In this document: positions 1 through 32,191 of the stretch, one piece after another
Position numbering within the stretch: the stretch's first letter is position 1
How the letters are laid out: every line of letters starts with the position of its first letter
DNA from: Psammoneis japonica
Taxonomy: Eukaryota
Assembly (NCBI GenBank): GCA_008632985.1
Contig: QPGO01000027.1
Coordinates: forward strand, 682,001 to 714,191
Direction: 5' to 3'
DNA length: 32,191 bases
Translations under genes and position numbers: made by a program
Notes under the pieces: model-generated
What the model was told of the DNA's origin: nothing
Seen by the model: the letters and a program-made list of their open reading frames with translations, nothing else
The model's database searches: none

Positions 1-3
1 CGC

Positions 4-10466: not shown

Positions 10467-10952
10467 CTAAGAAGTCGCCTTGGCATCTTCAACAACCTTC
10501 TTGGCTTGCTCTTGAAGGTCCGCAGCCTTCTTCTTGGCGTCTTCAACCGCTTTCTTGGCTTTTTCCTTGGCATCCGCCACCATTTTATCCGCCTGTTCGC
10601 TGGCTTGTGTCTTGGTTTCGGCCGCCTTCTTTTTCGCATCTTCTTGCAAGGCGTTTGCCTCTTCCTTTGCCTTTTTCTGAACGTCCTGCGCTTGCTTCTT
10701 TAGTTCATTTGCCATATCCTTGGCCTTGTCCATGGCTTCCTTGGCCTTGGCTTTGGCAGCCTGTTCCATCTCCTTGGCCTTTTCCTTGGCGGCTTTTTCG
10801 GCATCCGCCGCGGCCTTTTTCGCGTCTTCAGCCGCCTTCTTGCCCGCGTCTGCGGCGCTGTTGGCGGCATCCTTGAGACTGTCAGTCGACCAGCTGGCAG
10901 AGGCAGTGGACAAGACGCCAATGAGTAGAATGAAAAAGAGAGAAAGACGCAT
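10467..10952 (-). CDS. Secreted Ala/Lys/Glu-rich amphipathic helical protein, group-3 LEA-like
   Basis: Likely start MRLSLFFILLIGVLSTASA (signal peptide, ATG at 10952), followed by about ten 11-residue units (AKKAAADAEKA/AKEKAKEMEQA/AKAKAKEAMDK...). Confidence 0.7.
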   Translation of the reverse strand: MRLSLFFILLIGVLSTASASWSTDSLKDAANSAADAGKKAAEDAKKAAADAEKAAKEKAKEMEQAAKAKAKEAMDKAKDMANELKKQAQDVQKKAKEEANALQEDAKKKAAETKTQASEQADKMVADAKEKAKKAVEDAKKKAADLQEQAKKVVEDAKATS

Positions 10953-11430
10953 GATGGTGGTGTTGGTTATGTTGATGCCGGGAACAAGACAAGGTGGTGA
11001 TAGTGAGAGAGGTCGTTGTATGATTGACGTCTTGCGTCTTGCTCGATCAAAGATTTTGTGGGAACTGGATGGCATGGATCTTCAATCTCGCTGGAGGGGC
11101 AATATGAAAAAATCTTACTATTGACCCAATTGAGCATTTTCGAATAAATTAGCTTCGGAATGTGTCATGAGAGGCGTACCTACCATAGGGCAACTCCGAC
11201 GATCCGGTTCTGAGTACTGAATGTTGTAGCTTTTCACGTAGAAAATTTGTCAGTAAGTCTGTGCATACCCAGAGATATGATTCCTGCCCGAACACAACTG
11301 CCTCGATCAATCGGTCTTATTTGTTTGGGACAAAAACTTTATTCAATGGTCCATTTCCTGTTTATTTTCAGTACACGGATACCAAAATACCGCTTCATGC
11401 CATTTTTTCTCTGCACAATACGACCCCACC

Positions 11431-14400
11431 ATGACGACGTCGGATGAAACTGCCACCGCTACCTCTCCCTTTTCCCAAATCCCGGGACGGCCGTCGTTTC
11501 GTGCTGCCAATCTCAATGCAATCGCCATGATTCCTTTGCTCAGTACCGACAGGGACGCGGGCGTTGAACTCGACAGTCATTCGGCACGGTCCTTTCACAT
11601 GCTGCTGTCGTCTCTGCGACGCTATGCAAGAATGAAGAAGCAAAATGCCATGTCTCCTCGGAACAACAATGATAATAACAAGAGTTTTGAATTGGACGAT
11701 GTCGATTTTTCAGAAAATGACATGCAGGTCGATAGCAGCAACAACAATGTCATGTTGGTGATTCCTCATTCGCAATTAACGCGACCGGGGGATTGGCGCT
11801 ACGACAGCACGCCGTTGCGTAGTTTTCATTGGTCCAATGGCTGTCAACGCATGATTTGTTTTGATGGTCGTCCCACGTGTGGACGCATGGCTCATGATCG
11901 GCTGTTGAATGCCAGTGTCGGTCGGGATTGGATTGATCTGGTCCCCAACCGAAGGACTGCGGCTGTTGTGGGAATATTGAATATAAAGGATTGTATTTCC
12001 GAAAGTGACTTGGATAAGGCTGAACACGAGTTGCAGCAGTGGGCACAACGATATAGTGCTCCGCCGTATGAAGTTACGGCGCATGGGCGGTCCTTTGCAA
12101 GAGATGAAGTAGTGACGAGACTCTTTATTTTTGATTCCTTTGATGAGGAATGTCAAAAGCGAATTGACTTGTCCTCCACCAATTCCAGAAGCGACATGGT
12201 GGCGTTTCCGCCCAGCGATGATGCTCACCATCAAATGATGGATTTGCATTTGAATATTGTATTGAATGATTTGGCGGTTGCGATTTTTAGACAATTGGAG
12301 ACCAAGATTCGAGAGTCGGACAATACGGGAAAAGACAAGGGAGCCGCAGGAAGAAAAAATACGCGCAAGCCTGGAACAGACGAACCCGTCAATACCAAAG
12401 CCATGAGCATTACGCAGATTGCCTCCGTCGTGAATGCCGACAATGAATTGGCCATTGCAGACGACAAGCAGCAAGGCGGCCCCGGCAAAAAGGCTCGCAC
12501 GGCAATCAAGTCCATGACGGAGTCGGCCGGTCGACTCATGCCGCATCGCAAGCAAACGGCACAACCACAGCTGCTGACACCGCTGGATGATGTATGGGAT
12601 TATTCGGAATTGTCTCAAAAGGACGCGGATGCCTTTAAGAAGCGTGATGTCGGGCGGCGTGAGAAAATGGCTGCGGACTTGTCACTCTTGGCAGGATCGC
12701 CCATTGATGCGTACGAACGTTACACGAAAGCTGCGGAATTGACAAAGGCGTCACACGATCCCTTGTGGTATGCAGCGTCCCTAGAGGGATGTGCCGCATC
12801 GTTTGTGGCAATGGCCGAAGCGGGTGGACACTGTGTCGATTCGTATCTCGAATCCAATTTCCAATTGGATTCGGACATGATGGTCCTCGCCAACGCGGCC
12901 AAGGACGACAAGACGAGCAAGACTGCCCTGGCGGTGGACAAGACCAAAACCACGCTACCGGCGGCAGTTCGTGCGCTTTGTGAAGAAGCGCTCAGTATTT
13001 TTAGTCGCCACCCCAAATTGGCTCCCTTTCACGCAGAACTTGTGCTCAAGCTAGCGTGGTACACGGCCGAAGTGGAAGAATCGCATTTGCGGTGTCGTTG
13101 GGGAGAACAGGACGGATGCTATAGTGGAGAGTCTGGTGAAGCACCACGATGGGAACGAACATCCGTGGCACACGCCGAATCTCTTTCCAAAAGCCGCGAG
13201 GGCAAGGAGCTCTTGTCCGCCAACACCATGACTCGATTAAAGAATTGGTCCGAACTCTTGCACCGTGCCGCCTCGACGGGTGGGTTGGATCCACGCACCC
13301 GGGCCGATGTCGCTGCCGCGTGTGCTCGCCTGTGCCTGACGGGAATGCGAGCCACCCATTGGGGTCCACCTCGTCGTCTCTGTCTGCACCGCAAAGCTGC
13401 GTTCTTTACCGTCGTGTCAGCAGAAGCGCTGTCGCAGTGTGGCGAAAGCGACGATGTGAATGCAGACGGGCTGTGGTTGGCAGCATGCCAAGCGTATACC
13501 CGAACTGGTAACAGTTTCAAGGAGGGGTCGCACTATGGTTGGGCTACTCTCCGAGCGTGCACTCTGCATGCACTATCTCAACAGCGTGACTACTTTTCTT
13601 CGGATGCAGGTAAGTCATGGTGCGTTAAGACAAGTAATTGCAGTTCTTTATACTGAGTTCTCGATTTTCTTTACAATGCTTTCTACAGCGGCGGAATTGT
13701 TGTTGGCGCTCTTGGGTAAGATTTCTCCCGAAGAGACAAAGGACGCGGCCATGTTGGATCGGATCAATTCGTCGGATAGTAGTATGGAAATCAAGGAGGA
13801 CAGCCAGCACAGCCTGGGAGCGGTGGGAGAAGGGCAACCCATTGTGGAAGCCGATATCTCCCAAACCGTCGCGAGTGCCTTTGCAAAGCGAACAAGCCTA
13901 GCGTCCAGAAACTTTTTCTCGACGGAAGCAAAATCGTCGTTGCTCACTGTCGCGCAATCCAAGTGGACCAACGACGAGCCCATTCCGCCAGTACCGCTGC
14001 CTCTGGTAGACCCTAATCATATTGTCGCCCTCGCTAGTGGGCGTAGCAACAATTCCATGGAAACCCTGGACGCATCCCTTTCGCGGTCACTCATTTCGCT
14101 GAATTGCGTGTTACCCAGAGTGCAACCTTATTCCTGCGGTGTTGCTCAGAAGCGGTGTATTGAGCTCATTTCTGATATCCGACAGGAGTTGCCCACAATT
14201 TCGTCAGCCTCTGATGACCTGGAGAGGGAGACATTCCCAATCTATGGTGAACGTGACAAACCGTTGCCGCCACCTCTTCACATTGTCACGGCCAAGGCTG
14301 TCAAGATCGACTCGCACTTGCTGTTGGAACGGAGCAAGGCTCTCGGATTTGCGGGCAAGGCGACAGGGGCGATGGCAACCTTCTTCAATCCCTACGATAG

Positions 14401-16486
14401 CAAACAGCAAGAAGCGAAAAAGAATGAGCCTTCGCTTGTGGCCGAAGGCGAAGAACGGTCAGTCCTGATTGAGTTTGGAAGTCATTTATCGGTGCCGCTA
14501 CACATTCCGTCTTGTGAATTGGAGTTTGAATCTCATGACAAGGATCGCATCAACGCACCACCACTTTCCTTCACCCTTCCTCCCATGTCCAAGAAGTATG
14601 CGGTTCGCTTTCCGTTTATTGTCATGACGGGTGGAAAAGGGGAAGAACCTGATGAATCATCGGGAGAGGAAGCTACTGAACCCGACATTTTTGAAGCCAC
14701 CGGCATTCGAATTACGTGCTTAAATCGCTCCTTTGTCATTCCCATTGTCCCTCCACTGGAGGATGAAGTGACAGAAGAAAACCTGGACGAGCTGCAGGTA
14801 CCAGAGCCAGCCTCTGTGTACACGAGGAGCGCTCACAACCTTCCCAACAAACCAGAGGAAAGGATGAACCCTCGCTTCGAGGCTGTCCCTCCACAGCCTC
14901 ATTTGATTGTGTCCTTTACATCCTCCAATACTCCTATCGAAGATGGTACGATTGTTCCTGTACACCTTTCGGACGGAGAGATTTATTCTATTCCCGACAT
15001 TCGTCTGCACAACGACTTTGGCCCTAGTGGTATGGGTTCTATGGAACGTCTTCAGATTCTTGGAGTCGGCCTTCCCGGTTTTGCGGACGAAATGCTTTTT
15101 GACTCCGACGAGAAAGCAGTTCAACAAGATGATGACGACGACGACGATGATGATGTTGTATCCACTTCTTCGTCCTCTGGAGGCTTTGATCAGCTGATGG
15201 AACATGATGGTCTCCCTCCCCTTCGAATGAAAGCTATTTACGACGGACTATCACTCAAGAGCGTCAATGATGAGAAAGGGAGCACTGTGAAGTTTCAGAT
15301 TGCAGCGACACACGACATGGGAAACCAGCTCGCGGATGGCGGTAACGTTCGTATCCGATTCCGCTACCGTGGAAAGTCACTCAACCCAGCGACCGAGATC
15401 TGGCGCAAGAGAGAGGTCAGCCTCAGGATTATTCGAGTAAAGGGGCCGAGGATTTCTTCCCTCACCTTTCGTTCAGACTTGAGCTGGGGTAGTGCCTATT
15501 CAGAACTTTGCCAGGCTTTGGCGCAGCAACGATTGCAGGTAGCACCAATTACAAAGCGAGAATTTACAAAAGAGAATCGCATGGCCTCCGACATCAGCGA
15601 GAAGTTTGTGGACACTGACGAAGAGATACCCATTGCGGAGCGCGTAGGCATTGACCCAGGAGTGCACGTTTCAGGGAATGACGTTGTGGTACTCATGGCG
15701 GTTGCGAACGAAACAAATTCAACCATTATTCTTTCGAACCGACTTGGTTTAGTTGGTGGCTTTGAAGGCAGCCCCATGCCGACGGTACGAGTGACTTCGG
15801 GCGTGAGCGTCAAAATCCCCGTCGTGATTCCGCGCATCGATCGTGTTAAAAGCGATGATTCGTCTGTGGATATTGCGTCCGAATTGATTGCCCGTACAGC
15901 GCTCCAGTGGGAATCCGTTGTCGATGAGGAACAGGACGGTTTTGCTGGAAATCGCCAGAAACGTCAGGGGCGAGTTCGTATCCCATCGCGCTGTCTTCGT
16001 GAGATTATTGACGAACACCAAACCTTTATTCCTCGCATTTGCAAGCCACCCGTCTCAGTCAAAGTTCGTGTCACCGCAGGAAAGGCTTTTGAGGACCATC
16101 TAGTTGTCACACCCGGTACGCCAGTTGATACCTTTATGGAAGTCGAGAATGCGGACTGGGTCCCGCTGGAAGTGATTGCCAAGTGCCGAATCACTCTCGA
16201 ATTTTGTTGTGCGCGAACTGGTAACACAGCCGGCAACATTGATAGCGCCAACGAGGACCAATTCCTGTGGTTTGGACGAGTGAGACGAAGCGTGCGAGCT
16301 GATGAGGAGGACAAGAAGCATCGTGCTCGTCTAACGTTTCTGGAATGTGGACCCTATGTAGTTTCGGCATGTGCACGTGTGACGATGGATGGAAGTGAAG
16401 CCGAAGAGACATGGTGGGCTCCACAAGCAGAGCACGTCATGGTGGAGAAGCTCAACTTTGAAGATTCGTTCCGAAGCTTGCATTAA
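11431..16486 (+). CDS. TRAPPC9: TRAPP II complex subunit Trs120/TRAPPC9
   Basis: Family-typical motif GRREKMAADLSLLAGSPIDAYERYTKAAELTKASHDPLWYAASLEG, LHRKAAFF, and FFNPY before beta-rich C-terminal domains. One intron 13610-13688 (G|gtaagt...ctacag|CG) joins the two long ORFs. Confidence 0.85.
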
Positions 16487-19025: not shown

Positions 19026-21100
19026 TTACAGGATTCTTCTAGCTGACCACTCAAACCCGGCATTATCCAATGCCGCTATCCGTGCTTGGGTCAATGAACC
19101 AGGCTGTTTTTTATCTTGACTTTGTTTGTACATTCTGCGCTGGGTCGCGATCCAACGTCCGAGACGCTTGTTTTCCGAGTAATTGGTTGGCACATGGCAA
19201 TGTCAATGAACAGCTCTAAATTGCATTAACTCATCATACATGGCATTCCAATTACTCGTTTGCAGTGACCATTCGAATCCAGCTCCTTCCAATGCGTTAA
19301 TGCGACCTGGCGTCATTGAACAAGACTTCTTTTTGTTTTGGTAACGCTTGTAATGTATTCGCTGCTGAGAAATCCACCGGGCGAGTCGTTTGTTCTCCGG
19401 ATAGACATTCGGCACGCGACAATGCCCGTGAATGGCTTTGAATCGCAAAAGCTCATCAAACATAACATGCCATCCCTTTCCTTGTACCGGCCATTCAAAT
19501 CCTACATCTTCCAATGCTCTTCCCCGGTCTGTCGTCAATGCGCATGGCTGGGTATTGTCTTGACAGCTTTTGAAAGCTGTACGTTGCCTCGCAACCCAAC
19601 TATATAGGGATTTATTCTCTGAGTCATTAGGGACACGACAATGCCCATGCGTAGCTTTGAATTCCAACAACTCATTGAACCAGTCATTCCATTTCCCCGT
19701 TGTTGTCGACCACTCAAATCCGGCATCTTCCAATGCTCTTATCCGATCACGCGTCATGGGACAAGGCTTCTCTTCGTTTTTAAACTTCTTGTAGTCGGAA
19801 CGCTGTGTTGCGACACAATTGCCTAGCCGTTTGTTTTCAGAGTACGGACACGGGACACGACAATGGAGGTGAATTGTCTTGAATTCCAATGACTCGTTTA
19901 ACATCAAATTCCACTCCTCGCTGATAGCGTCCCTGCGAAACCACTCGAATCCTGCATCTTCCAATTGTCTTATGCGATCAGGTGTGATCTGGCAAGGCTT
20001 GTTGTTTTGATGACGCTTAAAGCACGCACGCTGGTTCATCACCCAATGTGCGAGTCGACTGTTTTCCGAATAAGATGTTGGCACTCGACAATGCCCATGA
20101 AAAGCTTTGAATTCCAACTGTTCGTTGAGCATGCGCTTCCAACTGGAATTGTCAAGAGCCGTTCTTCCTCGCGGCACTGACCACTCAAATCCTGCGTCTT
20201 CCAGAGCTTTCAGACGATCCGGAGTCATTGAGCAAGGCTTGCTTTTGTTTTGACAACGCTTGCAGTTCCTGCGCTGTGTTGCGACCCAATGTGCGAGGCG
20301 TTTGTTTTCCGAATGAGACATTGGGACATGACAATGCCCATGAACAGAGCTTTGAATTCTAACAGTTCGTTGAGCATGCGCTTCCAACTGGAATTGTCAA
20401 GAGCCATTCTTCCTCGCGGCTCTGACCACTCAAATCCTGCGTCTTCCAGAGCTTTCAGATGATCCGGAGTCATTGAGCAAGGCTTGCTTTTGTTTTGACA
20501 ATGCTTGTAATTCCTGCACTGCGTCATGACCCAAAGTGCGAGACGTTTGTTTTCCGAACAATGCTGCGGGACACGACAATGTCCATGAGCAGCTTTGAAT
20601 TCTAATGGTTCATTGAGCATGTGCTTCCAACTGGAATTGTCAAGAGCTGTTCTTCCTCCCGGCACTGACCACTCGAATCCTGCATCTTCCAGAGCTTTCA
20701 GACGATCTAGAGTCATTGAGCAAGGCTTGCTTTTGTTTTGACAACACTTGCAATTCCTGCACTGCGTTGTGACCCAAAGTGCGAGGTGTTTGTTTTCCAA
20801 ATAATGCCATGGGACATGACAATGTCCATGACTGGCTTTGAGCTCCAGCAATTTGCTGAGCATGAGGTGCCACTGAGCATCTCGGGGAGATTGGTTGAGG
20901 TCGAAGCCGATGTCGTTCAGCTGGGCTCTTTGCTCTTCTGTGAGAGGTGACTTGTGATTGCTCAATTTTTCTTCAAATCCCTTGCATTGTTGGCTTGTCC
21001 AACAGCCCAAAGAAGAGCTTGTCGGTGCAATGAGATGCCCATTCTTTTCTTTGAAGTCAACCAACTCTTGGAGTCGACGTTGCCACTCATCTTTGTGAGC
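19026..21100 (-). pseudogene. Multi-HA-domain (9 units) protein pseudogene
   Basis: Nine W..M..EL.EFK..HGHC.VP..Y.EN..L..WV..QR...MT..R...LE..GFEW units. Disruptions: 2-bp insertion near 20345, premature TGA at 19203-19205 (H*HC for HGHC), and many Y>C/H and R>C/H changes. True stop TAA at 19026-19028. The 5' end is not resolved. Confidence 0.85.
20150..20880. repeat. Three highly similar 243-bp tandem units (81 codons) within the HA gene
   Basis: Anchor CCACTC(A/G)AATCCTGC at 20181, 20426 and 20669. Spacings are 245 (includes the 2-bp insertion) and 243. Confidence 0.9.
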
Positions 21101-21575
21101 TGCAGCGGGTCTCAGTTCTAGTTGTGCTGTGACAGCCCACGAACACGTTCGACATTGTTTACGTTTGAACAATAAATCCTCATAACACGATCTGCCAATG
21201 GGTGGTGAGTGGAAACCTCTGCTTTTGTGGACTGAACCAGAAGCGAAAAGGCCTCGTTTTTGTTTGCACAGAAGCAGATTGCGAAGAACAAAACTGCAGA
21301 AAGAGATGACTGAGCCAGCTTCCAAAGAGACATTGACAGGGACTTCATACTTAGGTAAGATGCTGCGGTACAGTTGCGTCAGAAGTGGAATGTGCTTGGT
21401 ACAGCAGTGCTTGTTCATGCTCATCATGTGATCGCATATGTGCGCTGCGTGTTCAGTGTGCGTTTCGTGCGCGTCGCGTGGTCCAGGTCGGCAAACGGAC
21501 ATTGCGTGCATCTAGGCTTTTAGTCTGCCAGATTCAGATAGTCTACCGGTTACCGGTACGTTGGTATTCTTGACC

Positions 21576-22513: not shown

Positions 22514-25237
22514 TTAATGAGCCAGTATGAACATGACAATGAGAAATATGGAATAAGCGACAAAGAAAAGGATGGCTGCTGCGTAGTCCACTGTCCTCAA
22601 CTTTTTCAGCCTTCTTTTCTTCTTCGAATCAGCCTCATTAAGTCCCTGAGGAAGAAGCCTATGGCTCCACCATGTCAAGCTCGTCAGTCGCTTTTTTCGT
22701 CCACTGCGTTTTCGCTCCCTAGTGGGGTGAGCGGTCGACTCCTCCAATTGCTCATTATCAACGTTCACTTCTGTGTCAAACCCAACGGTATATTCGCGAT
22801 CTTCCCTCTGAGTACCACTTTCCAGGGCGTTGATGCTGTTGTTATTGTTGTTGCTGTCGTCAATCAGATTACGGGTCTCTTCAATGTCTCCGTGCTCTTC
22901 CCTCTCACCCTCGTAGTCATTGTGAGCGTAAAAATACAACACAATAATTGACTCGACAATTCCAAACACCACAAACATTTTAGATCCAAATGAAAGGCGA
23001 TAAATCCAAAGAAACTCCTGCGTGACAGGAGTCGAGTCTGCCAATGTAATGTCTTGAGCAACAATCACAAAGAGAATAGACGAACCTGTATGAAAAAAGA
23101 TTTTGTGTGGTGAGATGGGAATATCATAGAGGCCATCTAACAAGATGCCACCGTGAAGTAACTCACCGTAGCCCAGTCGTTCTCCCAGATGAAAGTCGAC
23201 GAAGAACATTCCAAATGCAAGATATGTAAAAATAATGTAGAGAGCAACAAACAGGTACACGTAGTATCGTTTCGCCCTCGCAAACGTAAAATCAAAACGA
23301 ACTAGCTTGTTCTCAAACCCAGACAGTTGTTCAGTTCTGAACGACACTCTTGTTTTGCGAATGTCGAGCTTGTATTCTTGGTAATTCCAAGAGCTGTCGC
23401 TTACCCGTGCGCTGTACTCAACGGATTTATTGGCAGGAACATAATTGACCCGATGATAGAGAGGATCCATCGTGCCACCAAACTCCATGTGACATTCTAC
23501 AAAAAGGCAAAACGAAGAGTGAGGAAAACGGCAAAAGCCTGAAGTGGACGTGATACGGCGCTTACCTGTCTTATCAAAGGGAAAGTCTTCGATACCAGAG
23601 AGATCACAAATAGCTGCTAGTACTCCTGTGCGCCTCCATTTCACATATCCATCATAGCGCACTGACGCATGTGCTTCGGGCAAGCTTTGAACGCCCCTTA
23701 CCATATTTACGAGCTCCATGTTTGGAACCCACAGTTCTGTCTGTTCCGCGTCAACCGATGCCCTGAAAGAAGATCGATGGCAACCCCCAATAAAGGGTTC
23801 CCACACAAGACGTGGATCATACCATTCCAACTCTAGCGACATTAAAATCTGCATCGAGTTTGTCTTTACTTCAATCTCCAATGCGTGCGAGATATCCAAA
23901 GAAATCTTGACGTCGACAGCATCTTTGCTGCTGAAGAAAGGATCTTCTTCCTTTGGTGATGGATCGACCGGAGTTATGGTATTGTACTTATCGACAAGAG
24001 CATCATGGATCTGGCTTTCACACTCGTAATTTGCCCGCGTGTCATCACAACACGCCTCTTCAAAGAACGCACGGCCAATCTCACATGCGTAGGTCGAGAC
24101 GTCCTCTTTTATCAAGAGGGCGTCAAGCTGGCTACATGACCATCCATCAGTATCCGGATAGAGTTCTAGCCAATCCTTTGGGTACTCTCGAATTGTGCCG
24201 TTGAAGAGTTTGGCTTCTGTAGCACCGCAAATGTTGCAGTCGTCCGACAAGGGCAAAAAGTCAAGTTCGAGGTCCACCTCCTGGATGGTCACGCCTTGAC
24301 TTTGAATTGTCTCTGCATCCAAAATAGAACTGTTCTCGTTAAGTCGATATTCTGGAATACCAAGAGGGTTATTAATCACAATGTCTCGCAGAATAAAGTG
24401 TACGTGGCCGCCTTGATCTGAGTCAACGAGTTGAATCGAACACAGTTTTGCATCATCGTTGTTTTGGGTGCTACAGCGAAACAGCATTGCACCATGTCGA
24501 CTCCAGTAAACGTTTCCATTGGGTAAAATTATTGCCGTTGTGTCGACGAGTGGCTCTCTTGTTCCCTGATCATGAGGGACGAGATGCGGCGTCCAAATGT
24601 CGGTGCGTCGGACCTCAAACCCTGTGCACGGTGCAATAGAGGAAGAACTCCACCTCAGCCGTTCATCCGTCCATTGTAAGTGGAGAGATCCTACTATTTC
24701 AATGGCACCACCATCAATGCCATGATCGACGATATGCATTTCATCAAAGAGCTCCACTACCAAGCTAGCATTCACCGCAATCCCTTTGGAAATGGGTGGA
24801 ACGTACTTGTCATAACTCGCATTGCTGCCCGTGAGCAGAGCCTCTCTCATTGTAGCTTCACATTCAAACAAAGGAGGCACATTATCACAACATTGTCGGA
24901 AAAGCCAGTCACGTAGCGCAAGACAGTCAAACCCTTCGTTTCGTTCCGCATAAGTTGCCCAATCCGCACAAGTAAGGTTGTTGTTCTGCACCATGGCTTT
25001 GCCTGCTGTTGCGTTATCAAAGGATACGCGGGCAGCCGCTTCTGTTGTTCTGGGACGAGTATTGTTTAGAATCAAAAATCCAGGCAGGCAAATGTTGCAT
25101 TGACCTGTATTATTCTGTTCCTGAAGCGTCCTTCTTGGTGTTGCGATGCTTTGGCTCGCAACAGTACCGACAAAATTAAGAATCGCCATGAGATATGCTG
25201 AAAGAATCAGAACGTCGTATCGCTTCAACTTAAACAT
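22514..25237 (-). CDS. Pentameric ligand-gated (Cys-loop-type) ion channel subunit with a duplicated extracellular region
   Basis: Signal peptide, two ligand-binding-domain-like blocks (WTDERLRW..IWTPHL..NGNVYW and WYDPRLVW..LWVPNM..YDGYVKW..C..EDFPFD..C), four TM helices with GERLGYG before M2. Two stop-free in-frame introns, 23497-23565 and 23086-23166, are read through by the ORF track. Confidence 0.85.
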   Translation of the reverse strand: MFKLKRYDVLILSAYLMAILNFVGTVASQSIATPRRTLQEQNNTGQCNICLPGFLILNNTRPRTTEAAARVSFDNATAGKAMVQNNNLTCADWATYAERNEGFDCLALRDWLFRQCCDNVPPLFECEATMREALLTGSNASYDKYVPPISKGIAVNASLVVELFDEMHIVDHGIDGGAIEIVGSLHLQWTDERLRWSSSSIAPCTGFEVRRTDIWTPHLVPHDQGTREPLVDTTAIILPNGNVYWSRHGAMLFRCSTQNNDDAKLCSIQLVDSDQGGHVHFILRDIVINNPLGIPEYRLNENSSILDAETIQSQGVTIQEVDLELDFLPLSDDCNICGATEAKLFNGTIREYPKDWLELYPDTDGWSCSQLDALLIKEDVSTYACEIGRAFFEEACCDDTRANYECESQIHDALVDKYNTITPVDPSPKEEDPFFSSKDAVDVKISLDISHALEIEVKTNSMQILMSLELEWYDPRLVWEPFIGGCHRSSFRASVDAEQTELWVPNMELVNMVRGVQSLPEAHASVRYDGYVKWRRTGVLAAICDLSGIEDFPFDKTGKRRITSTSGFCRFPHSSFCLFVECHMEFGGTMDPLYHRVNYVPANKSVEYSARVSDSSWNYQEYKLDIRKTRVSFRTEQLSGFENKLVRFDFTFARAKRYYVYLFVALYIIFTYLAFGMFFVDFHLGERLGYGELLHGGILLDGLYDIPISPHKIFFHTGSSILFVIVAQDITLADSTPVTQEFLWIYRLSFGSKMFVVFGIVESIIVLYFYAHNDYEGEREEHGDIEETRNLIDDSNNNNNSINALESGTQREDREYTVGFDTEVNVDNEQLEESTAHPTRERKRSGRKKRLTSLTWWSHRLLPQGLNEADSKKKRRLKKLRTVDYAAAILFFVAYSIFLIVMFILAH

Positions 25238-25633
25238 TTTTTAAACAGTTTCTTCCTATGGAGCGCCTTCTACTTTATAGATCTGCAGTATAAACTTCGT
25301 TGGCAATTTGTTATTGCTTCTCAAACTCGAAAAGCAACGATCTCATCGTCTTCTCATGTTGTTGTTGCTGTAGTTGCAGATCTCCCAGTGTTCGCGAGCG
25401 AACATAAAAATACACACATCTCTGAAGTAAAATATAAAACGTACGACTGGATTTTCCCACGATCCGATCTTTCAGTCACGAGCACTAATTGAATAGAAAA
25501 AAAGTGAAAGTTGATTATTAGCAAATTATGGAATGAATATGGTAAAATGTTAGTACTCTATCTTTCAAGCATCTGTTGCGGCCAGAATTCTCAATTCTTT
25601 TCTCAAAAGATTTTCGGTTCTCACATCGTCGCC

Positions 25634-26710
25634 ATGACGAAACAAACCGCTCGGTTGAGCAGCCGCTGCTTTCTTCTTTTCGCAGCGGTGCTCTTCGTGA
25701 GATCGTCATCTTTTGTATGCGACGCCTTTTCTTCGTCGTCCACCGACAATAACAATGGCTTTTCCTTGTCGGAATACTGGAAAGCACGTGCATTAGAAAC
25801 TTCCAATGCTCTGGATTGTTCGCGGTTTCATTTTCAAATTTTATTTGTGGACGACGACAATAGCAAGGGACGAATTGCTCGGGGTTTGTTGGATAGAATT
25901 GCCGAATACAATGACGCCATGTGCGTTCTGTTTCCGGCTTGCGCCACAATCACACAAGCCTACCGCGCACCCCGCGATGCAGCTGCACCGCAACAAGCCC
26001 TTGACGTGTGCGAAGAGCTTGGACTGTGTCCCCATGTCAGTGAAGAAATTGGGACAGCGTTTGATTTATCGTGCTTGGACGAATATGACTTGATCATTTG
26101 TATGAATGACGACATTCGGGACTTGATTTTGAGATCGATCCATGCCGATTTCGACTATTACGCTCAAAAGTGCCATTCGTTGGGCGAGTTTCTGAGTTTG
26201 GATTTCTGTTCCAGCCTCTCGCCATCATCCTCATCAAAGTCGTCCTTACTCGACATGTTGGAACAAGACTTGGTTGAGCGTGTGGCGCCCTTTGCGGATT
26301 TCTTGGTGAGCAACAGCAATCTCGACAAACAAGACCTCTTCTGTCTGACAGACGTGAGCGATCGTCGTGCTGCTGCTCCATATATGATTTTAAACGCAGA
26401 CGGAGCCGCCGTCCCCAATACGGCCGCTTGGTCCGTGGCGGAAGCGGGAATGATTCTTGCCACGGCGGGTGTCACGCGCTTTTGTCTCGATGCCATGGAT
26501 TCGCAGTTGAATTCTTCTCTGGACAGCTTGCTCGAGCGTAATGTCTACCAGCCCGAGCACTTGCGTCTTGCGTGGGAAACGGTCGATGCTCAATTGCAAC
26601 GTTGCAATGCTGCAGTACATGGATACTTTTCACCGCAACAACGAAAGGCCAAGTTTGTGCTGCACGTTGCCAACTTGAAGGAACGGTTCAAGAACAAGCT
26701 CAAACCTTGA
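25634..26710 (+). CDS. LMW protein-tyrosine-phosphatase-fold protein, probably plastid-targeted and catalytically inactive
   Basis: Signal peptide ending VCDA|FS followed by a Ser-rich transit-like stretch. FQILFVDDDNSKGRIARGLL corresponds to the ILFVC.GN.CRS..AE motif, and DEYDLIICMN to the DLI..MD motif. Confidence 0.6.
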   Translation: MTKQTARLSSRCFLLFAAVLFVRSSSFVCDAFSSSSTDNNNGFSLSEYWKARALETSNALDCSRFHFQILFVDDDNSKGRIARGLLDRIAEYNDAMCVLFPACATITQAYRAPRDAAAPQQALDVCEELGLCPHVSEEIGTAFDLSCLDEYDLIICMNDDIRDLILRSIHADFDYYAQKCHSLGEFLSLDFCSSLSPSSSSKSSLLDMLEQDLVERVAPFADFLVSNSNLDKQDLFCLTDVSDRRAAAPYMILNADGAAVPNTAAWSVAEAGMILATAGVTRFCLDAMDSQLNSSLDSLLERNVYQPEHLRLAWETVDAQLQRCNAAVHGYFSPQQRKAKFVLHVANLKERFKNKLKP

Positions 26711-27079
26711 CATTGACAACAACTAGAATAAACTTAACTGGAGCACTGCACACAACAGAAGCCGACAAGGCATCATTATAGTGGCTAGGACGACGTATGG
26801 AGCACTCCCAGGGACAGCGAGTACGACTTTGTATGGTCAGTGGGCTTGAGAAATATCAACGAGTAATCTGAGACCAACGAAACTATTAGTACAAGCTTGA
26901 AAAGATATGGAATGGAACTGTGACAACAGCTTGAGGGTACACTAGAACCCACCTGATAGGCTAGGGCTAGAACTGTCGACTTCGAAGATTTTCCTACCGT
27001 ACTACTGCAGAGCTGCTTGCGTTTACTGCCGACGCTCTCACCAAAAAGGATTCCATGACCATCGTTGGTCGCGAGTTCG

Positions 27080-28630
27080 TCACTCCGCCGCCTCAAACTC
27101 GCTCAGCGTCGTCACTCGGCCCCTCGTGTGTGCTGCCACACTATAACAGGTAGAGCTCTCGCAGCCCACCGGTACAACCTCCCAAGCCGGGAGTGAGCAG
27201 CCTCCACGAGAGAGCTTCTGCACTTCTTTGAACATTTTGCACTGCAGTCCTGACTCGCTCCCTCTCACAATTGAATGAAATGAACACCCTCTGTTGCTCC
27301 AGCTCTCTGCTGGTGAGCTGAAATCTGGCAGACACTCTCTGAGAGCAGCAGCCAGACCTTCCATCTGTCTTTGCTCATCTTTGGCTGCCAATGGCAACCT
27401 GGAACTCTAAGAAACCAGTGGGCAATTCACAGGGGCAGAACCATTCTCCTCACATGAAATCATGGCCAACCTCTTGTGAGAGTCCACACTGTGTCAGTGA
27501 GTCATTGTGGGCCATGGCACACAGCCTGTGTCATCCACTTTTGATCAAACTTTGACCCAAAAAGTGTCACCTCAAAATCATCAACAACATGCCCCTGGTT
27601 GTCCACTGCATTGTGTTCCAAGCACAATGTTGGGGTGGAGTCTCATCTCATTGACAGAGTGCTCCAGCCATGTCAACATTTTGGTTGACAAAAAGGAGTG
27701 GAGCATGAAGTGCGCACTTTTCTGGCATGCTTGGAGCTGTCTGTCTTTGTGGCCTGCTGCACCCATGTGCCCAGATCACAGATCACCCTTGCTGCTCTGG
27801 GCCAAAGCCCAGTGTGCAAAACTGTTGTGCGCCATGTGCTTCTCACAATCTGCAAGAGAAAATGGGCATCACCTGAGCTGCTGAGACCCCACAGCATCAA
27901 AAAAATGCTGGTGGTGAGGCACATCAATGGGAGGACAAGGTCTCTAAAGCAGTTGTGAGGCTGCTTTGCACACTGACCTTCTGTTTTAGCAACATTGATG
28001 GTCTTTGCCAAAAGGTCTGACTGGCAACAGCATGGCTGAATTTGCTCAAAAGATGCCCCTGGCTGCACATGTGTGTGCCTCCCTCTTTCCCCGCAGGTGA
28101 CCACATGCCGTGGCACCAAGATCTGCAGCAACAACAGCATGCTGGGTGATGCTGGCCATGGCATTGTCAGGTCCCCCATCACGAGGATGTGGAGCAGTGT
28201 CAAGAAAGGCAAGAACATGCTGTTGACATCTGGGCATCTGCAGCAAGAGTGCTCAACTCACTTTCTTGCACCAGCTGCTCAATGAGCAACTTTGCACTTG
28301 GAGCACTGCCGACGAGGAGGCCTCCTTTTTTGGCTTGCCAGAGCCAAGTGCAAATGACCCTGAGAGATCATTTTGCATGAAGCTGCTGGGACCACTTGTG
28401 TCTTTGGGCTGACTTGCATCTTCACAACCCAGACTCTCTCTTGTCACCTTCAGGAACAAAAGGGGGGGTCAACAAACACTGGGGGCTTCCCACCCCTCCT
28501 TTCTGTGGGCTCTGCTGCCGTGCTTCTGCACCCACAAATTCTTGCAGATCATTTTCTCTGTGCTGGGAGGGACTTGAGTGCTTGTGGTGCCACTGCTGAG
28601 AGCCAAAATCTTTCAGCCATTTTTCTGCTC

Positions 28631-28673
<43 letters not shown>

Positions 28674-28772
28674 TGCTGCTGTCTCCTGCTCCTGGGTTTT
28701 CAAAGCACAGCCCACTTTTTCCCACTTTGTTTCTTGTGCTTTGAACTTTTCTTGGTGCCTGCCTGGTGCCAT
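27080..28772 (-). pseudogene. Heavily mutated relic of an unidentified protein-coding gene or element ORF
   Basis: ORF fragments 28253..28459, 28046..28246, 27581..27766 and 27080..27397 share one frame. Several breaks are TGA (compatible with CGA>TGA), but in-frame TAA/TAG also occur. No domain recognised. Confidence 0.35.
28634..28671. repeat. (CT)19 microsatellite
   Basis: Perfect CT dinucleotide run, followed by short (GCT)n. Confidence 0.95.
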
Positions 28773-29058
28773 TGTTCTTTGTTGGATGATTGTGAAATCA
28801 AAGGTCAAAACTGCATGGTGGTGTTTGTTGTGTTTCTCGGAAAGATGTTCGTTTGTGCCAGTCATCTCACAGGTTGTGCTGCACCGGCAGCGAGGTTGCA
28901 CCATGCAATGCAATGATTTATTGCCAACGCGAGCGTGAGAGGTTGGCGCTCGCTGCGAAGCTTCTGATCTGATTGGCACGGCTGAATCACTCTCATGATG
29001 GCAAAGATTTCATGATCGTGGCTGGTTGACGACAAGCCCATAACCCACATCAACAAAT

Positions 29059-29186
29059 TACTTCGAGCCAAAGTAAGCTAAATGGTTAACGATGTTCCTT
29101 AATTAAAAATTCTACTTCGGCTCAAAGACAGCTAAATGGTTGACGAAATCCCCTAATTAAAGACAGCTAAATGGTTAACGATGTAG
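29059..29186. repeat. Short direct repeats, core AGCTAAATGGTTRACGA x3
   Basis: Cores at 29076, 29130 and 29165. The first two share an upstream TACTTCG..CAAAG and a downstream TAATTAAA. Confidence 0.85.
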
Positions 29187-29639
29187 AGTTGTGGGCACAA
29201 GTAAAATCGAATAGATAAAACAGGATGTCAAATACGAAATCATCATGTGTTTTCTGCACCAGTTAACTACAGCATTTACATGTTCATTTGGAAATGTCAA
29301 TTGGTTTTCTCTCTCTACATTCAATGCTCGCAACAATGCTGGTTTTCAGATCTCTGCATGGGCATCCAATCAAAATGGACAATGCACACCTTTTGCAGCA
29401 AAGACAAATCAACCCATCTGGCATTGCAGCATCCTTTCAATCCACACTCAACAGAGGCGAGCACACGCCAAAGACTTGCAGAGAGAACAAAAGGCTCTTG
29501 AGCACACAAAACAAGAACAGAGTTGATGCACCCCTCTTGTTTTGAAGCTTGGGCCCTCAAGTGGCGCATGGTTTGGCTGGCTCTGCAGCTGGTTGGGAGG
29601 TTGATGGCTTTTTCATGACTCACAGCTTGAGGCTTCTTG

Positions 29640-31000
29640 TTGGCACACGAGCTCGCCCGTGCAATGTCGCCTTTCGAGCCTGCTGCTTGCTGGAGCTGAG
29701 ATCATGTGGACAGCTCTCCACATGCCTGGGCTTTGTCATTCAGGTGCTCAATCACAAAATCATCTTCTCTTGCACTGTGGCTGCTTGGCTTTCATCAACA
29801 AAATCTGCAGCAGCCCAGGCCATCCTGAGCACTCGTGACAAAACAGCTCTCCTGCAAAACCCTTCTGCTTGTCCCCCCCCCAGAGTGGTTCTTGGCAACA
29901 GTGCCACCCACAAACCAAGCTGCAGTCACGACTGTTTGCTGAGCTGCCAGCTGAGAAATTAAAACCAAGGTTGAGAGCTGAGCATGAGACCTCCTGTGAG
30001 ATGTGCCTGCAACAAGCCTCTCCACACAGCCGTGCTGCACATGGGGTCTGAAGCAAGAGGCACATGTTTTGATGCACAAGCACATGTGCAATGTCACCTT
30101 TGGAGCACGCTGCTCACTGGAGCTTGAGCAGAGGACAGCTCTCTGTGTGCAAACCATGTCTGTCAGATGCTCAGTCACAAAAACATCTTCTCTTGCTGTG
30201 GCTGCTTGGCTTCCATCAAAAGAAAGTTCCCACAACCCAGGCTGCCCCAGCCACCATTGACAGAATGGCTCCTGCAAAACTTTTCTGCATGTTTCCCTCC
30301 TCCCCTGCAGAGCTGCTCTTGGCAACAGTGTTGTCTGCATGCCAGGCTCCAATCAAGATGGTCTGCCAAGCTGCACCAGCTGAGATGCCCAACTTGAGTT
30401 TGCAGGCTCCCAGAACCACAAGACACACAGAGGGCAGCAATGCACGTCTGGTGCTGGTGGCAATGCTGAGCTCTTCATTTGCAGCTTCCCAGGGGCACAC
30501 CCACACCTTCAGAACACCAGCACAACCACAAGAGTTGCCCTCCTTGTGCAGTCACAACAGCACGTTGCACCATCTGCAAAAGGAGTGCAGGCAGCCTGGC
30601 TCCTGGGCTGCATGCTGACCCCACATGCCACAGCTTTTCACAGCTGAGCAAGAGACGCCAGTGTTTCAAAAACCCTGAGCCAAGGTTGGAGCTGGCAGGA
30701 GCTNNNNNNNNNNNNNNNNNNNNNNNNNNNNNNNNNNNNNNNNNNNNNNNNNNNNNNNNNNNNGTGTTTGTCATTTGTTGGCACAGGCAGAACAACTTTG
30801 AGCTTGCTGTTGGACAAAAAAGCTCTGAGTGAGGTTGGGCCCAAGAGTCATTGAGCATGCTGAGTGCACAACCTGAGACATGCCAGCAACAAAACTCTCT
30901 GCACAGCAATGCAGCCAGAACCTCTCTCACTCTTCTCTCAAGAGCTTGCTCAGGACAACACACCAGGGTTTGAAAAGCAAGCAGCCAAGCTTGCATGTTT
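29640..31000. repeat. Degenerate ~427-bp tandem duplication/array of unknown origin
   Basis: GTGCAATGTC at 29659 and 30086, with collinear shared blocks (GGACAGCTCTC, CATCTTCTCTTGC, CTGTGGCTGCTTGGCTT, CTCCTGCAAAAC, TCTTGGCAACAGTG). Weaker similarity continues past the gap (~30875 vs ~29998). Confidence 0.7.
30704..30763. other. Assembly gap (60 N)
   Basis: Run of N characters. Confidence 0.99.
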
Positions 31001-31538
31001 TTCTTCTCCCTGGCCCTCCCCAGATGCAGCCTTTGAGCCAATGGTCACCCTGAAGTTGCAATGTGCACCCAGCTTTTGCCCCTGCGGCAACCACCCCAGA
31101 CCACAAAGAAGAAGCCAATGAATCTCTGGCCCTGCTTGCATGGTCAATTTTTGTGTGTGCATCGAATGGTTGAATCCCCTCCTTTTTCCCTTTTCCGTTA
31201 ATCGGCCACGAATATGAAAAAATTGCCCTCATGATAATGCACCATGATAGATCCTCTTGCTTTTGTCGCGCTTTTTTGCGTGAATGTCACAGTACAAAAT
31301 CTACATACGTACAGTACGTGAGTTCGAGCTCTCGACAGTACATAAAAGATCCACTCAACATACACTCCCACCAACAAGCAACAAGCAACACTCAACACCC
31401 AACACCAACACACCAAGCAAACAGGACGGAACTTACTATTCCAAGTTCACCAAGAAAAGAGAAACGATACATTGCATCTTGGTCGAATTGATTCCTCCCA
31501 TGCATTCTTTCGATTGATGAACGATACTAAAAAATAAC

Positions 31539-32191
31539 ATGAGTTTTGGGAACACGAACGAAGACCTGCCCAAGCCACTGCTGGCAGGGCAAGTCCTTGC
31601 GAGTTTCTCAAATTTATCATTGCTCGCCTACCAAGAAGATATCATCAATGCACTATTGGAAACGATACAGCTCGGTGATATTGCTGTACTTATCTTTATG
31701 GGATGGGCAATTCTTCCTATATCCAGATTAATCTATGACTTATACTTTCGTGGAAACAAGGGACCGGGCGAGCTTACAAATCTGTCTTCAAGAAGTAACT
31801 CGAGTGAATTCGACGCTGATGTTGATCNTTCTTCTCTTTCATTGACGTTTATGGTTGCCAACAGCGACAGGTCAGATTGCTCAAACTAGGCTGTCTGGTC
31901 TACACTTTGACTTAGTCATCATTGTTTGGGATGTCGCCACACCGGATCATGACTTGAAAGAATTGAAATTAGTTTGAAATTCGCAACAGTTAGTCTAATG
32001 TCCTGGCGCGCTGTTCGTTTGATGACGGTTAAACAGTATCTTCTCTGCCTCGCGGTCCGTCGACCACTAAAACAAGCTTGGGAAAGTTGGAGTCTATGAC
32101 CGGATCCTTGATATTTTATCCTCGTCTCGTTGGCTGTTGCTGTGTTGGATATTCTGATTTTGATTTGGGTCCAGGTCTGGCATCTCTGTTT
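31539..32191 (+). pseudogene. N-terminal part of a multi-pass membrane protein, possibly MscS-like mechanosensitive channel; frame broken, runs off the window
   Basis: IQLGDIAVLIFMGWAILPISR, then fragments in shifted frames (QIAQ..LVY..DLVIIV; KLGKVGVYDRILDI; LDIL) that resemble diatom MscS N-termini as I recall them. Multiple indels and an N at 31828 point to poor consensus or decay. The MscS core is not in the window. Confidence 0.4.

Follow-up and report, generated by a model that had tools for sequence, protein, structure and literature searches.

The window analyzed here, a stretch of 32,191 nt from a contig of Psammoneis japonica (QPGO01000027.1, assembly GCA_008632985.1), contains a gene for an HA-domain protein and, beyond it, a 4.6-kb intergenic insert in which two blocks of this diatom's DNA are nearly devoid of TA and CG dinucleotides (Table 1). 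The blocks extend over 1.63 kb and 1.85 kb, lie 0.43 kb apart, and are unrelated in sequence yet alike in composition. Mapping every TA and CG gave their approximate limits, with each edge no more than about 50 nt wide. Across the window, successive TA/CG are a median of 8 nt apart; of the 21 longest gaps free of both (up to 429 nt, this longest one spanning the 60 N), all but one were placed in the two blocks, whereas the exception (20914-21023), together with the 19th longest (20802-20883), falls in a third zone, at 20.8-21.0 kb within the HA gene.

Table 1. Features of the window relevant to the loss of TA and CG.
Feature	Position	Strand	Remarks
HA-domain (PF03457) gene, eight repeats	19203..21511	-	two overlapping ORFs; Pfam HA E = 8e-86 and 3e-40
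TA-poor, partly CG-depleted zone in HA gene	20018..21119	-	array 20041-20831 plus about 290 nt beyond
Block 1	27208..28838	.	TA/CG-erased, non-coding, single-copy stretch
(CT)19 microsatellite in block 1	28634..28671	.	Tandem Repeats Finder: period 2, 19 copies, 100% matches
Piece of normal composition between blocks, genomically repeated	28885..29316	.	430 nt
Block 2	29317..31163	.	TA/CG-erased, non-coding; member of repeat family
Old internal direct duplication in block 2	29640..30420	.	29640-29990 and 30067-30420
60-N run within block 2	30704..30763	.
Short repeat, high-copy and normal in composition, adjoining block 2 on its right	31163..31381	.

Between 27241 and 28620 (1380 nt) there are 3 TA where 81 are expected from base composition (o/e 0.04) and 9 CG where 91 are expected (o/e 0.10), together with 150 CA (o/e 1.71) and 163 TG (o/e 1.94). 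The region 29521-31140 (1560 called bases) holds a single TA (o/e 0.01), 14 CG (o/e 0.13), 185 CA (o/e 1.71), and 166 TG (o/e 1.94). An earlier note on this DNA, made by hand from the letters, had given the same TA and CG counts exactly, and its description of abundant TG and CA (o/e 1.7-1.9) with AA, TT, and AT retained is likewise borne out (AA o/e 1.18-1.39). Over the full extent of the blocks, block 1 (1630 dinucleotides) contains 3 TA, 9 CG, 162 CA, and 195 TG, and block 2 (1785 called dinucleotides) contains 1 TA, 17 CG, 222 CA, and 183 TG. TpA frequencies are 0.0018 and 0.0011, CG o/e is 0.10-0.14, and GC content is 0.505-0.523. Under the background frequencies of the window, TA or CG counts as low as these have a Poisson probability of 1e-21 to 1e-29 in each block. 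The remaining window (1-27000) has a TA o/e of 0.53 and a CG o/e of 1.00.

CA and TG account for 96-97% of all YpR steps in the blocks vs. 61% elsewhere, and total YpR is 0.227 in the blocks vs. 0.21-0.26 elsewhere, unchanged as expected if transitions alone acted. Dinucleotides were also saturated in silico on DNA of the window, under a model that converts both TA and CG and under a CG-only model. The first yielded a CA/TG o/e of 1.94-1.95 and the second 1.67-1.69, close to the observed CA value; given a TA-free ancestor, the CA/TG excess in the blocks could derive from CG alone. The GC content reached under the model converting both was 0.46, below that of the blocks, and the blocks have less AT and more GC, CT, and AG than simulated, which indicates that their ancestor was not typical DNA of the window.

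These mismatches, the reach of the CG-only model, the very sharp block edges, and the untouched repeats that directly adjoin the blocks all speak for an intrinsic composition, that of an element family that lacked TA from the outset or had shed it long before at another place, with ordinary CpG decay as the only process here and no local TpA mutator. The blocks would then be copies of such a non-coding element, or selection, perhaps against TA as a site of cleavage or binding, would keep the sequence free of TA. We nevertheless consider this unlikely. A TA o/e of 0.01-0.04 over 1.6-1.8 kb is far under that of the lowest ordinary gene in the window (0.27), total YpR is conserved, and the two unrelated blocks share a common composition, which argues for a process rather than a shared ancestor. 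Moreover, the HA repeats described below show the same loss with a known direction.

In block 1 no ORF exceeds 195 aa, and searches of its ORFs and read-through frames recovered no Pfam family at or above the curated cut-off; in block 2 the read-through frames gave no Pfam match at E ≤ 0.1 and the ORFs gave sub-threshold matches only. A search of the insert for Rfam families was negative, a search for protein relatives of one of its ORFs found none, and comparison with viral and metagenome contigs gave no match. All reading frames of the TA/CG-erased DNA are open for 70-195 codons. DNA of this kind produces long false ORFs and can mask decayed mobile elements in homology searches.

Only one public run contains this stretch, and its read-built contigs may come from the source sample of the window itself, in which case they are not independent of it. 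One contig covers 26000-28617 unbroken, running on from the flank into block 1 at the depth of the flanks, with 5 differing letters. Contigs of the run reproduce block 1 with 2 differing letters at a depth of 61, equal to that of the flanking genes. Such agreement at flank depth indicates that the consensus is read-supported, a point on which the earlier note had made its reading depend, with the reservation just given about the run's origin. The contigs of up to 315 kb, the longest in the run, argue for accurate reads and against a long-read base-calling artefact. An assembly or sequencing artefact might be suspected because a single run, possibly the source sample, holds the stretch and because the window has runs of N; with block 1 reproduced in this way and neighboring genes of the same contig normal, we regard it as barely credible.

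In contrast to block 1, block 2 is repeated in the genome, with a summed depth of 243-556 in the same run, from which 255 contigs were placed at ≥85% likeness over 26000-32191. Differences among block 2 copies are transitions at 125 of 187 places. In the best 40 of 192 variant rows, the 16 best-supported rows of block 2 include five that fall on residual CGs of the window and one with CG in other copies and CA in the window, and none creates a TA, as an intrinsically TA-free family would predict. Since copies differ at residual CGs, CpG decay went on after they separated. At ≥85% likeness, the other copies look no richer in TA than the one in the window, so that TA loss may predate their spread. 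A CA/TG double difference separates the window from the run at 28477-8 in block 1, the single hint of change arising de novo, and another separates copies at 30865-6. Within block 2, the two members of the old internal duplication share 234 of 343 aligned positions and differ by 68 transitions and 41 transversions; CA<->TG is the commonest double transition (11 cases vs. 16 for all other classes combined), as predicted by the independent decay of a single ancestral CG or TA, and 4 CG of one member stand opposite CA or TG of the other.

The earlier note had called the erasure repeat-restricted, which holds for block 2, as a member of a repeat family, and for the repeated HA array described below, but not for block 1, which is single-copy. 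The highest-depth pieces (28898-29311 and 31163-31381) are also normal in TA and CG. Between the blocks, 28881-29300 (420 nt) has 22 TA (o/e 0.64) and 18 CG (o/e 0.97), and this piece, which contains a 54-nt tandem repeat at 29059-29161, reaches a summed depth of 558-1068 vs. 61 in the flanks; it probably arrived after the change or else offers too short a target. To the right of block 2, 31151-31400 (250 nt) has 12 TA and 11 CG, and the short repeat there has a depth per bin of 1645-2293, with individual positions at up to about 4000. With such high-copy neighbors untouched and block 1 at flank depth, a simple repeat trigger fits poorly.

A second affected locus allows the direction of change to be followed. 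The HA-domain gene, in which repeat R3 appears to open with a +2 frameshift and has a 2-nt insertion in the alignment, contains a young tandem array of 3.2 x 243 nt with 87% matches, and only 6 TA lie between 20018 and 21119 (end positions not counted). Per 225-nt repeat, TA/CG counts are 7/16 in R7, 10/8 in R6, 6/15 in R5, and 4/14 in R4, and 1/14 in R3, 2/10 in R2, 2/5 in R1, and 0/7 in R0. When the three young tandem repeats R1-R3 were polarized by R4-R7, transitions were found in 5 of 12 TpA cells vs. 9 of 309 other A/T cells (2.9%; Fisher p = 5e-5), where the TpA cells represent 2 inferred ancestral sites in 3 copies and are non-independent through shared ancestry. Transitions were likewise enriched in CpG cells (25 of 102, vs. 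11 of 246 other C/G cells; p = 2e-7). The proposal that TpA changes more often than other A/T contexts was thus upheld for these repeats in a comparison of copies with older copies.

Where TA is present in at least three of the four older repeats (8 cells), R0-R3 keep it once and have TG in 4 cells and CA in 1; where CG is (19 cells), they keep 6 and have CA in 6 and TG in 3. Of the cells with conserved CA, 28 of 35 are unchanged, as are 25 of 38 with conserved TG. In these repeats TpA changed more than CpG, which matches the blocks, where TA has disappeared more completely than CG. At the protein level, conserved Tyr and Arg residues became Cys, His, or Gln, with conserved Tyr replaced by Cys or His in R1-R3. 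HA column 35 is Arg in 58 of 59 related domains and in 969 of 1043 aligned domains, and Cys, which is outside the eight commonest residues of the 1043 at this column, is found there in R0, R1, and R2. The affected part of the protein contains 0.7% Tyr and 10.7% Cys+His, vs. medians of 3.0% and 4.6% in 150 relatives. Against a TpA-directed process, none of these 150 HA proteins of other organisms carries an equally strong Tyr-poor, Cys/His-rich footprint (nearest, 1.2-1.3% Tyr and 6.7% Cys+His). The HA repeats thus show TA as a source of the extra TG and CA, an origin that we infer for the two blocks.

Both loci bear on how the change could be made. Pol eta prefers WA motifs, which include AA, and a pol-eta-like polymerase making A>G errors at such motifs in methylated or damaged DNA, an alternative put forward in the earlier note, would explain through its tie to methylated DNA why TA and CpG are lost in the same place. 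It fits poorly, as AA is retained or enriched (o/e 1.18-1.39) where TA is at 0.01-0.04, in the HA repeats just 2.9% of the A/T sites other than TpA have changed, and the footprint already suggests a spectrum confined to TpA with no rise at ApA; we therefore hold this error-prone repair to be very improbable. The sparing of A after A equally argues against editing of dsRNA of the ADAR type. ADAR hyper-editing of repeat-derived dsRNA resembles the present signature in its A>G change and its 5' U preference, but ADAR also edits A after A, belongs to a metazoan enzyme family, and acts on RNA.

More generally, A-to-I editing with a 5'-U preference could have acted on retroelement transcripts that were then reverse transcribed and inserted, followed by CpG decay in DNA. 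Weak strand asymmetries of opposite sign in the blocks (TG 195 vs. CA 162 in block 1, p = 0.09; CA 222 vs. TG 183 in block 2, p = 0.06) are compatible with such change on one strand, provided that the two blocks are oppositely oriented, as are the 4 TG vs. 1 CA derived from conserved TA on the HA coding strand. However, TG and CA outcomes are both present, a search for reverse transcriptase, LTR, poly-A tail, and other retroelement features found none, and the HA repeats that were hit form a tandem array within a host gene and are no retro-copies. Together with the origin of the change in resident single-copy DNA of another alga (see below), these points leave editing at the RNA level with only a slim chance.

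Among known systems, the closest likeness is to the chlorarachniophyte Bigelowiella natans, for which regional TpA>TpG/CpA hypermutation was reported in 2026 by Mettrop et al. (bioRxiv 10.64898/2026.01.13.699255), so the earlier statement that no described system does this no longer applies. According to this preprint, silent viral DNA integrated in the genome undergoes the change in real time in mutation-accumulation lines, at a rate per site and generation of about 6e-7 (de novo changes in culture of this type run at about 1e-7 to 1e-6). Targets are proven in two cases, an insert of a giant virus (186 kb) and one of a virophage, which are depleted only in part (TpA 3.3% of dinucleotides, Rho 0.45), and a low-TpA class of CDS has a TpA frequency of 0.0018. 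The preprint names TadA/ADAT2-ADAT3 and their DNA-acting relatives as candidates and cites DNA editing by amphioxus ADAT2. The systems agree in that TpA is lost to TpG or CpA in bounded nuclear regions (block TpA 0.0018 and 0.0011), that a target may be single-copy, and that many affected sequences of B. natans are without annotation. They differ in that the host here is a stramenopile and not a rhizarian, that the loss of TpA has reached saturation and CpG has been erased along with it in the blocks, that no viral feature can be recognized, and that a tandem array of a host gene is also affected. The defining transitions are shown in the HA repeats and would have produced the present state of the blocks; as for a foreign, silent target, the insert has no recognized Pfam, Rfam, or viral match, and the HA target is a host gene. 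Neither 'CpG' nor 'diatom' occurs in the text of the preprint (bioRxiv 10.64898/2026.01.13.699255), and a literature search found no TpA hypermutation for diatoms and none linking TpA hypermutation to CpG loss.

The loss of CG resembles the CpG decay of methylated repeats in its o/e of 0.10-0.14, the TG/CA excess, and CG>TG/CA changes that are independent between copies. Deamination of 5-methylcytosine, which by established chemistry turns CpG into TpG/CpA, explains only half of the block signature, because it neither removes nor creates TA. Fungal RIP is likewise saturating, confined to transitions, dinucleotide-specific, and bounded, and the young tandem duplication of the HA gene is affected with about 290 nt of spill-over, as in RIP. 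Its polarity is opposite, since RIP makes TpA from CpA, and block 1 is single-copy. Usual RIP cut-offs ask for a high TpA/ApT (about 0.89) and a low (CpA+TpG)/(ApC+GpT) (about 1.03); blocks 1 and 2 have 0.042 and 0.015 for the former and 2.08 and 2.25 for the latter, which speaks against fungal RIP.

Taken together, the polarized HA repeats, the conserved YpR total, and the CA<->TG excess between internal duplicates (11 vs. 16) favor the process proposed in the earlier note, TpA and CpG both passing to TpG/CpA, as the best reading, although for TA in the blocks the step is one we infer. We consider it probable that the blocks are the footprint of a TA-directed DNA mutator plus ordinary decay of methylated CG, in old inserted or mobile non-coding DNA of the diatom nucleus at 27.2-31.2 kb. 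Both self-complementary YpR dinucleotides, TA and CG, would have been driven near extinction by transitions, leaving CpA and TpG. One process would be CpG>TpG/CpA through deamination of 5-methylcytosine at a presumably methylated locus; diatom TEs have been shown to be CG-methylated by DNMT5a (PMC9998398). The other would be TpA>TpG/CpA, an A:T>G:C change only where A follows T, and the same pair of changes appears to be under way in the three young tandem repeats of the nearby HA-domain gene. The likeliest agent of the second process may be a DNA-acting adenine deaminase. In tRNA, the natural substrate of TadA/ADAT2-ADAT3, A34 follows the conserved U33, which gives a built-in TpA context, so a descendant of this tRNA A34 deaminase would inherit a 5'-T requirement. 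The likeness is one of candidate context, and regional action on chromatin is not known for these enzymes. Stramenopile-specific deaminase-Tudor proteins could be alternative candidates, and duplication, foreign origin, or silent chromatin might mark DNA for attack.

More tentatively, diatoms may possess a genome-defence mutator that deaminates the adenine of TpA, is aimed at CpG-methylated DNA, and is set off by young duplications and inserts, RIP-like with opposite polarity. Since a rhizarian alga acquires this signature de novo, the system would date to the common ancestor of the SAR supergroup, unless it spread from one marine alga to another. So far, DNA mutation of the A:T>G:C type targeted to TpA is described in one organism and one preprint, with the enzyme at the candidate stage. 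If true, the saturated diatom footprint would extend the phenomenon to the stramenopiles, which are a major group and dominant ecologically, would indicate that the process, given evolutionary time, goes to completion, and would tie TpA mutation spatially to CpG methylation decay. The HA-gene repeats, as young tandem duplicates within a host gene, add another type of target and make it testable whether duplication, foreign origin, or chromatin state is the trigger. For base editing, a natural DNA adenine deaminase specific for TpA would be of interest, and if the signature is common to transformable model diatoms, the deaminase could be found there by knock-out.

Two neighbouring stretches of the window are almost devoid of both TA and CG dinucleotides. 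Positions 27241-28620 (1380 nt) contain 3 TA and 9 CG, against 81 and 91 expected from base composition, and positions 29521-31140 (1560 called bases) contain 1 TA and 14 CG; these computed values reproduce exactly the hand counts of the earlier note. CA and TG reach 1.71-1.94 times expectation in both stretches, AA, TT and AT are retained, and the remaining 27 kb of the window shows observed/expected ratios (o/e) of 0.53 for TA and 1.00 for CG. Four or fewer TA plus CG per 300-nt sliding window occur only within 27301-31200, and mapping every TA and CG delimits two blocks, block 1 and block 2, whose edges are each confined to about 50 nt and which are separated by a 430-nt piece of normal composition. 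The median TA/CG spacing is 8 nt across the window, compared with gaps of up to 429 nt in the blocks. With the window's own frequencies as background, counts of TA or CG this low have Poisson probabilities between 1e-21 and 1e-29 in each block. The depletion is real and far beyond chance. A minus-strand ORF elsewhere in the window is low in TA (o/e 0.27) with normal CG (0.81) and CA+TG (0.143), and is ordinary TA-poor coding sequence, in contrast to the hypermutation-like zones.

Features of the window, with TA and CG counts per 225-nt repeat for the HA-domain gene
Feature	Position (strand)	TA	CG	Remark
First HA-domain gene	1-969 (+)			Separate from the gene at 19203-21511
TA-poor ORF	10467-11081 (-)
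TRAPPC9/Trs120 homologue	11281-16486 (+)			Two overlapping ORFs, 11281-13656 and 13460-16486
Second HA-domain gene	19203-21511 (-)			Eight repeats, R0-R7
Young tandem array, R1-R3	20041-20831			3.2 copies x 243 nt, 87% matches
R7		7	16
R6		10	8
R5		6	15
R4		4	14
R3		1	14
R2		2	10
R1		2	5
R0		0	7
Channel-like ORF	22514-25240 (-)			908 aa; PF02931, E = 8e-30
Block 1	~27208-28838			Bounds from positions of all TA and CG
Normal-composition piece	28885-29316
Deep segment, ~50 nt	near 28999-29047			Depth ~3000; several contigs stop there
54-nt unit, x1.9	29059-29161			Third partial copy 29159-29184; inside the normal-composition piece
Block 2	~29317-31163			Bounds from positions of all TA and CG
N run	30704-30763			60 N, in block 2
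Right-edge repeats	31163-31381
Single N	31828			In downstream gene
CGC/GCG difference	32007-32009			Window CGC, X1 and X2 contigs GCG; small local inversion-like difference or assembly error

The window is nuclear DNA of the diatom, with long, intron-poor ORFs encoding HA (PF03457), PIP5K, FYVE, TRAPPC9 and ligand-gated channel domains, and two of its proteins have few named relatives, from Attheya, Stephanodiscus, Fistulifera and Cyclotella. The split ORFs of the TRAPPC9/Trs120 homologue, whose closest database relatives share only 61% identity, suggest a short intron or a frameshift. From its predicted neurotransmitter-gated ion-channel ligand-binding domain, the 908-aa ORF is a putative pentameric-channel-like gene in a diatom. 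The blocks occupy a 4.6-kb gap flanked by two plus-strand genes; as read off the ORF list, the other intergenic gaps of the window seem much shorter.

The blocks do not code. They contain no ORF longer than 195 aa, though TGA is the sole possible frame stop, and Pfam searches gave a best E of 0.099 for 30 block ORFs of at least 70 aa. When 12 frames were read through with each stop written as X, one of them showed weak sub-cut-off matches, the best (E = 0.005) lying in a low-complexity stretch. An Rfam search returned 0 matches, and a search of 5.8 billion proteins, in the length range covered, with the block 2 ORF at 30073-30618 gave 166 candidates, none at E <= 0.001. No terminal repeats, LTRs or TIRs were found in the blocks. 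Self-comparison of the DNA reveals no relationship between blocks 1 and 2, or of either to other parts of the window, apart from a duplication within block 2. Recoding into purines and pyrimidines, which is blind to transitions, also yields no shared 32-mers. A 24-nt block 2 pattern had 0 matches in metagenome contigs, as did two patterns from the normal-composition repeats in viral contigs.

A search of public sequencing runs for block 1 identified one DNA run, X1, with 95% of the sampled block 1 words present, and listed no RNA run; read-derived contigs of two other runs, X2 and X3, contained the flanks only or nothing. Positions 26000-28617 lie in a single X1 contig piece with 5 differing letters, at depth 61 as in the flanking genes, and the X1 reads appear accurate because the longest contig reaches 315 kb. 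The reads thus support the consensus, on which the earlier note had made its reading depend; X1 is possibly the sample behind the window assembly and so does not count as an independent specimen. Block 1 depth equals that of the single-copy flanks, whereas summed depth is 243-556 in block 2, 558-1068 at 28898-29311 and 1645-2293 at 30968-31381, values that are not copy numbers and are taken only as several related copies. In total, 255 X1 contigs align at 85% likeness or more (59 at >=99% identity, 55 at 95-99%, 83 at 90-95% and 58 below 90%). The description of the erasure as repeat-restricted therefore holds for block 2 with its several related copies, but not for block 1 at single-copy depth, and the two deepest pieces, the normal-composition piece and the right-edge repeats, have normal TA and CG.

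YpR steps (CA, TG, TA and CG) make up 0.227 of dinucleotides in the blocks and 0.21-0.26 elsewhere, with CA/TG accounting for 96-97% of them in the blocks versus 61% elsewhere. Such a conserved total dominated by CA/TG is consistent with mutation, because transitions at CG and TA would yield exactly this pattern. Between copies in the X1 contigs, 125 of 187 differing places are transitions. Among the 16 best-supported block 2 variant rows, taken from the best 40 of 192, five fall at residual CGs of the window, and at four of these other copies read TG/CA; one has CA in the window where other copies have CG, one is a TG>CA double change, and none creates TA. Within block 2, the two arms of an old duplication agree at 234 of 343 aligned positions; between them there are 11 double transitions of the CA<->TG type and 16 of all remaining types combined, as well as 4 CG opposite CA/TG. 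Another CA/TG pair distinguishes the window from X1 at 28477-8 in block 1. CA<->TG pairs between copies are expected when a single ancestral CG or TA decays separately in each. CpG decay between copies is continuing. We infer TA>TG/CA change in the blocks; the main rival account, in which the block families were TA-free before spreading, we regard as unlikely.

When every TA and CG was converted computationally in 1.6-kb segments of window DNA, CA/TG o/e reached 1.94-1.95 (observed 1.69-1.94) and GC content 0.46 (observed 0.505-0.523), while the low AT and high GC, CT and AG of the blocks were not matched; converting CG only gave CA/TG o/e of 1.67-1.69. Therefore, the block ancestor differed from typical window DNA, and CA/TG excess alone is no proof of TA origin. 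Sorting CA/TG sites by flanking bases into native, ex-CG and ex-TA was discarded, as the profiles are nearly alike and the fit of 0% ex-CG contradicts direct evidence. Tri- and tetranucleotide enrichments revealed no higher-order motif. The two blocks show weak strand biases that point in opposite directions (TG 195 versus CA 162 in block 1, p = 0.09; CA 222 versus TG 183 in block 2, p = 0.06), and these do not separate a two-strand from a one-strand process.

Directional change can be followed in the second HA-domain gene, where a sliding count places a TA-poor, CA/TG-rich zone at ~20.0-21.1 kb. TA and CG per repeat drop along the gene from R7 to R0. With R4-R7 as outgroup for polarising changes in R1-R3, transitions affect 5 of 12 cells for A/T in TpA (42%) and 9 of 309 for A/T outside TpA (2.9%; Fisher p = 5e-5), and 25 of 102 cells for C/G in CpG (24.5%) compared with 11 of 246 for C/G outside it (4.5%; p = 2e-7). 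Ancestral TpA sites are few and R1-R3 share ancestry, so that cells are not independent; even so, the refuting outcome named in the earlier note, TA>TG/CA no more frequent than other A>G contexts, is not seen, and a TpA-specific process is favoured. Where at least three of the four older repeats agree, R0-R3 keep 1 of 8 conserved TA cells (TG 4, CA 1, other 2) and 6 of 19 conserved CG cells (CA 6, TG 3, other 4), alongside 28 of 35 CA and 25 of 38 TG. The array has undergone directional TpA and CpG loss, and the more frequent change of TpA than of CpG in R1-R3 parallels the blocks, where TA is more completely depleted than CG. R4-R7, which are older and more diverged, are unaffected, and the TA-poor zone runs ~290 nt past the array on one side.

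The changes reach conserved residues. Among 14 relatives, 58 of 59 HA domains have Arg at column 35, as do 969 of 1043 aligned domains of 150 further relatives, where Cys is outside the eight commonest residues; R0, R1 and R2 have Cys there. At one conserved Tyr position R2 has Cys and R3 has His, at a second R1 and R3 have Cys, and at a conserved Arg position R2 has His and R0 has Gln. Tyr makes up 0.7% and Cys+His 10.7% of the affected protein part, compared with medians of 3.0% and 4.6% in the 150 relatives, none of which has an equally strong footprint (nearest, Tyr 1.2-1.3% and Cys+His 6.7%). There is an apparent +2 frameshift at R3. The HA family is very large (a search of cluster representatives gave 11,643 relatives at E <= 0.001); in metagenome contigs the HA protein gave 42 pattern matches, 0 of them confirmed by tblastn.

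Fungal RIP is ruled out by its indices, with TpA/ApT of 0.015-0.042 and (CpA+TpG)/(ApC+GpT) of 2.08-2.25 in the blocks. An ADAR-like spectrum for TpA loss is disfavoured by the retained AA, which together with the low rate outside TpA in R1-R3 also speaks against the pol-eta-like repair suggested earlier. The statement that no described system converts TpA to TpG/CpA has been superseded by a 2026 preprint on Bigelowiella natans (bioRxiv 10.64898/2026.01.13.699255). In its mutation-accumulation lines, two inserts, a single-copy one of 186 kb from a giant virus and one of 25 kb from a virophage, received 231 of the 302 nuclear point mutations. Of these, 230 were GC-biased, each an A>G or T>C change at TpA that yields TpG/CpA, at ~6e-7 per site per generation and in some lines only; the authors suggest a DNA adenine deaminase resembling ADAT2. 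Our blocks, at TpA frequencies of 0.0018 and 0.0011, pass the preprint's cluster cut-offs. The words 'CpG', 'diatom' and 'stramenopile' are absent from the preprint's text, and no account of erased TpA in diatoms turned up among CC-licensed PMC papers and bioRxiv. Diatom TEs are CG-methylated, with maintenance by DNMT5a (PMC9998398, PMC2806351).

We lean towards reading the blocks as the saturated footprint of TpA-directed A:T>G:C hypermutation combined with methyl-CpG decay. The blocks would formerly have carried TA and been CpG-methylated, and TpA may have been removed by an adenine deaminase acting on DNA. The substrate of the tRNA A34 deaminase follows U33, and descent from such enzymes would naturally give a 5′-T requirement. 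Stramenopile-specific deaminase-SAM-Tudor proteins (PMC3239186) may be another candidate agent. As trigger, length-dependent recognition of duplications would account for block 2, for the HA array and for the sparing of repeats of up to 400 nt, but not for single-copy block 1. A trigger by foreign origin or by silent chromatin would suit block 1 and B. natans and would leave the HA array unexplained. If the hypermutation reading is true, this diatom would add a new eukaryotic lineage to a kind of process described only in 2026.
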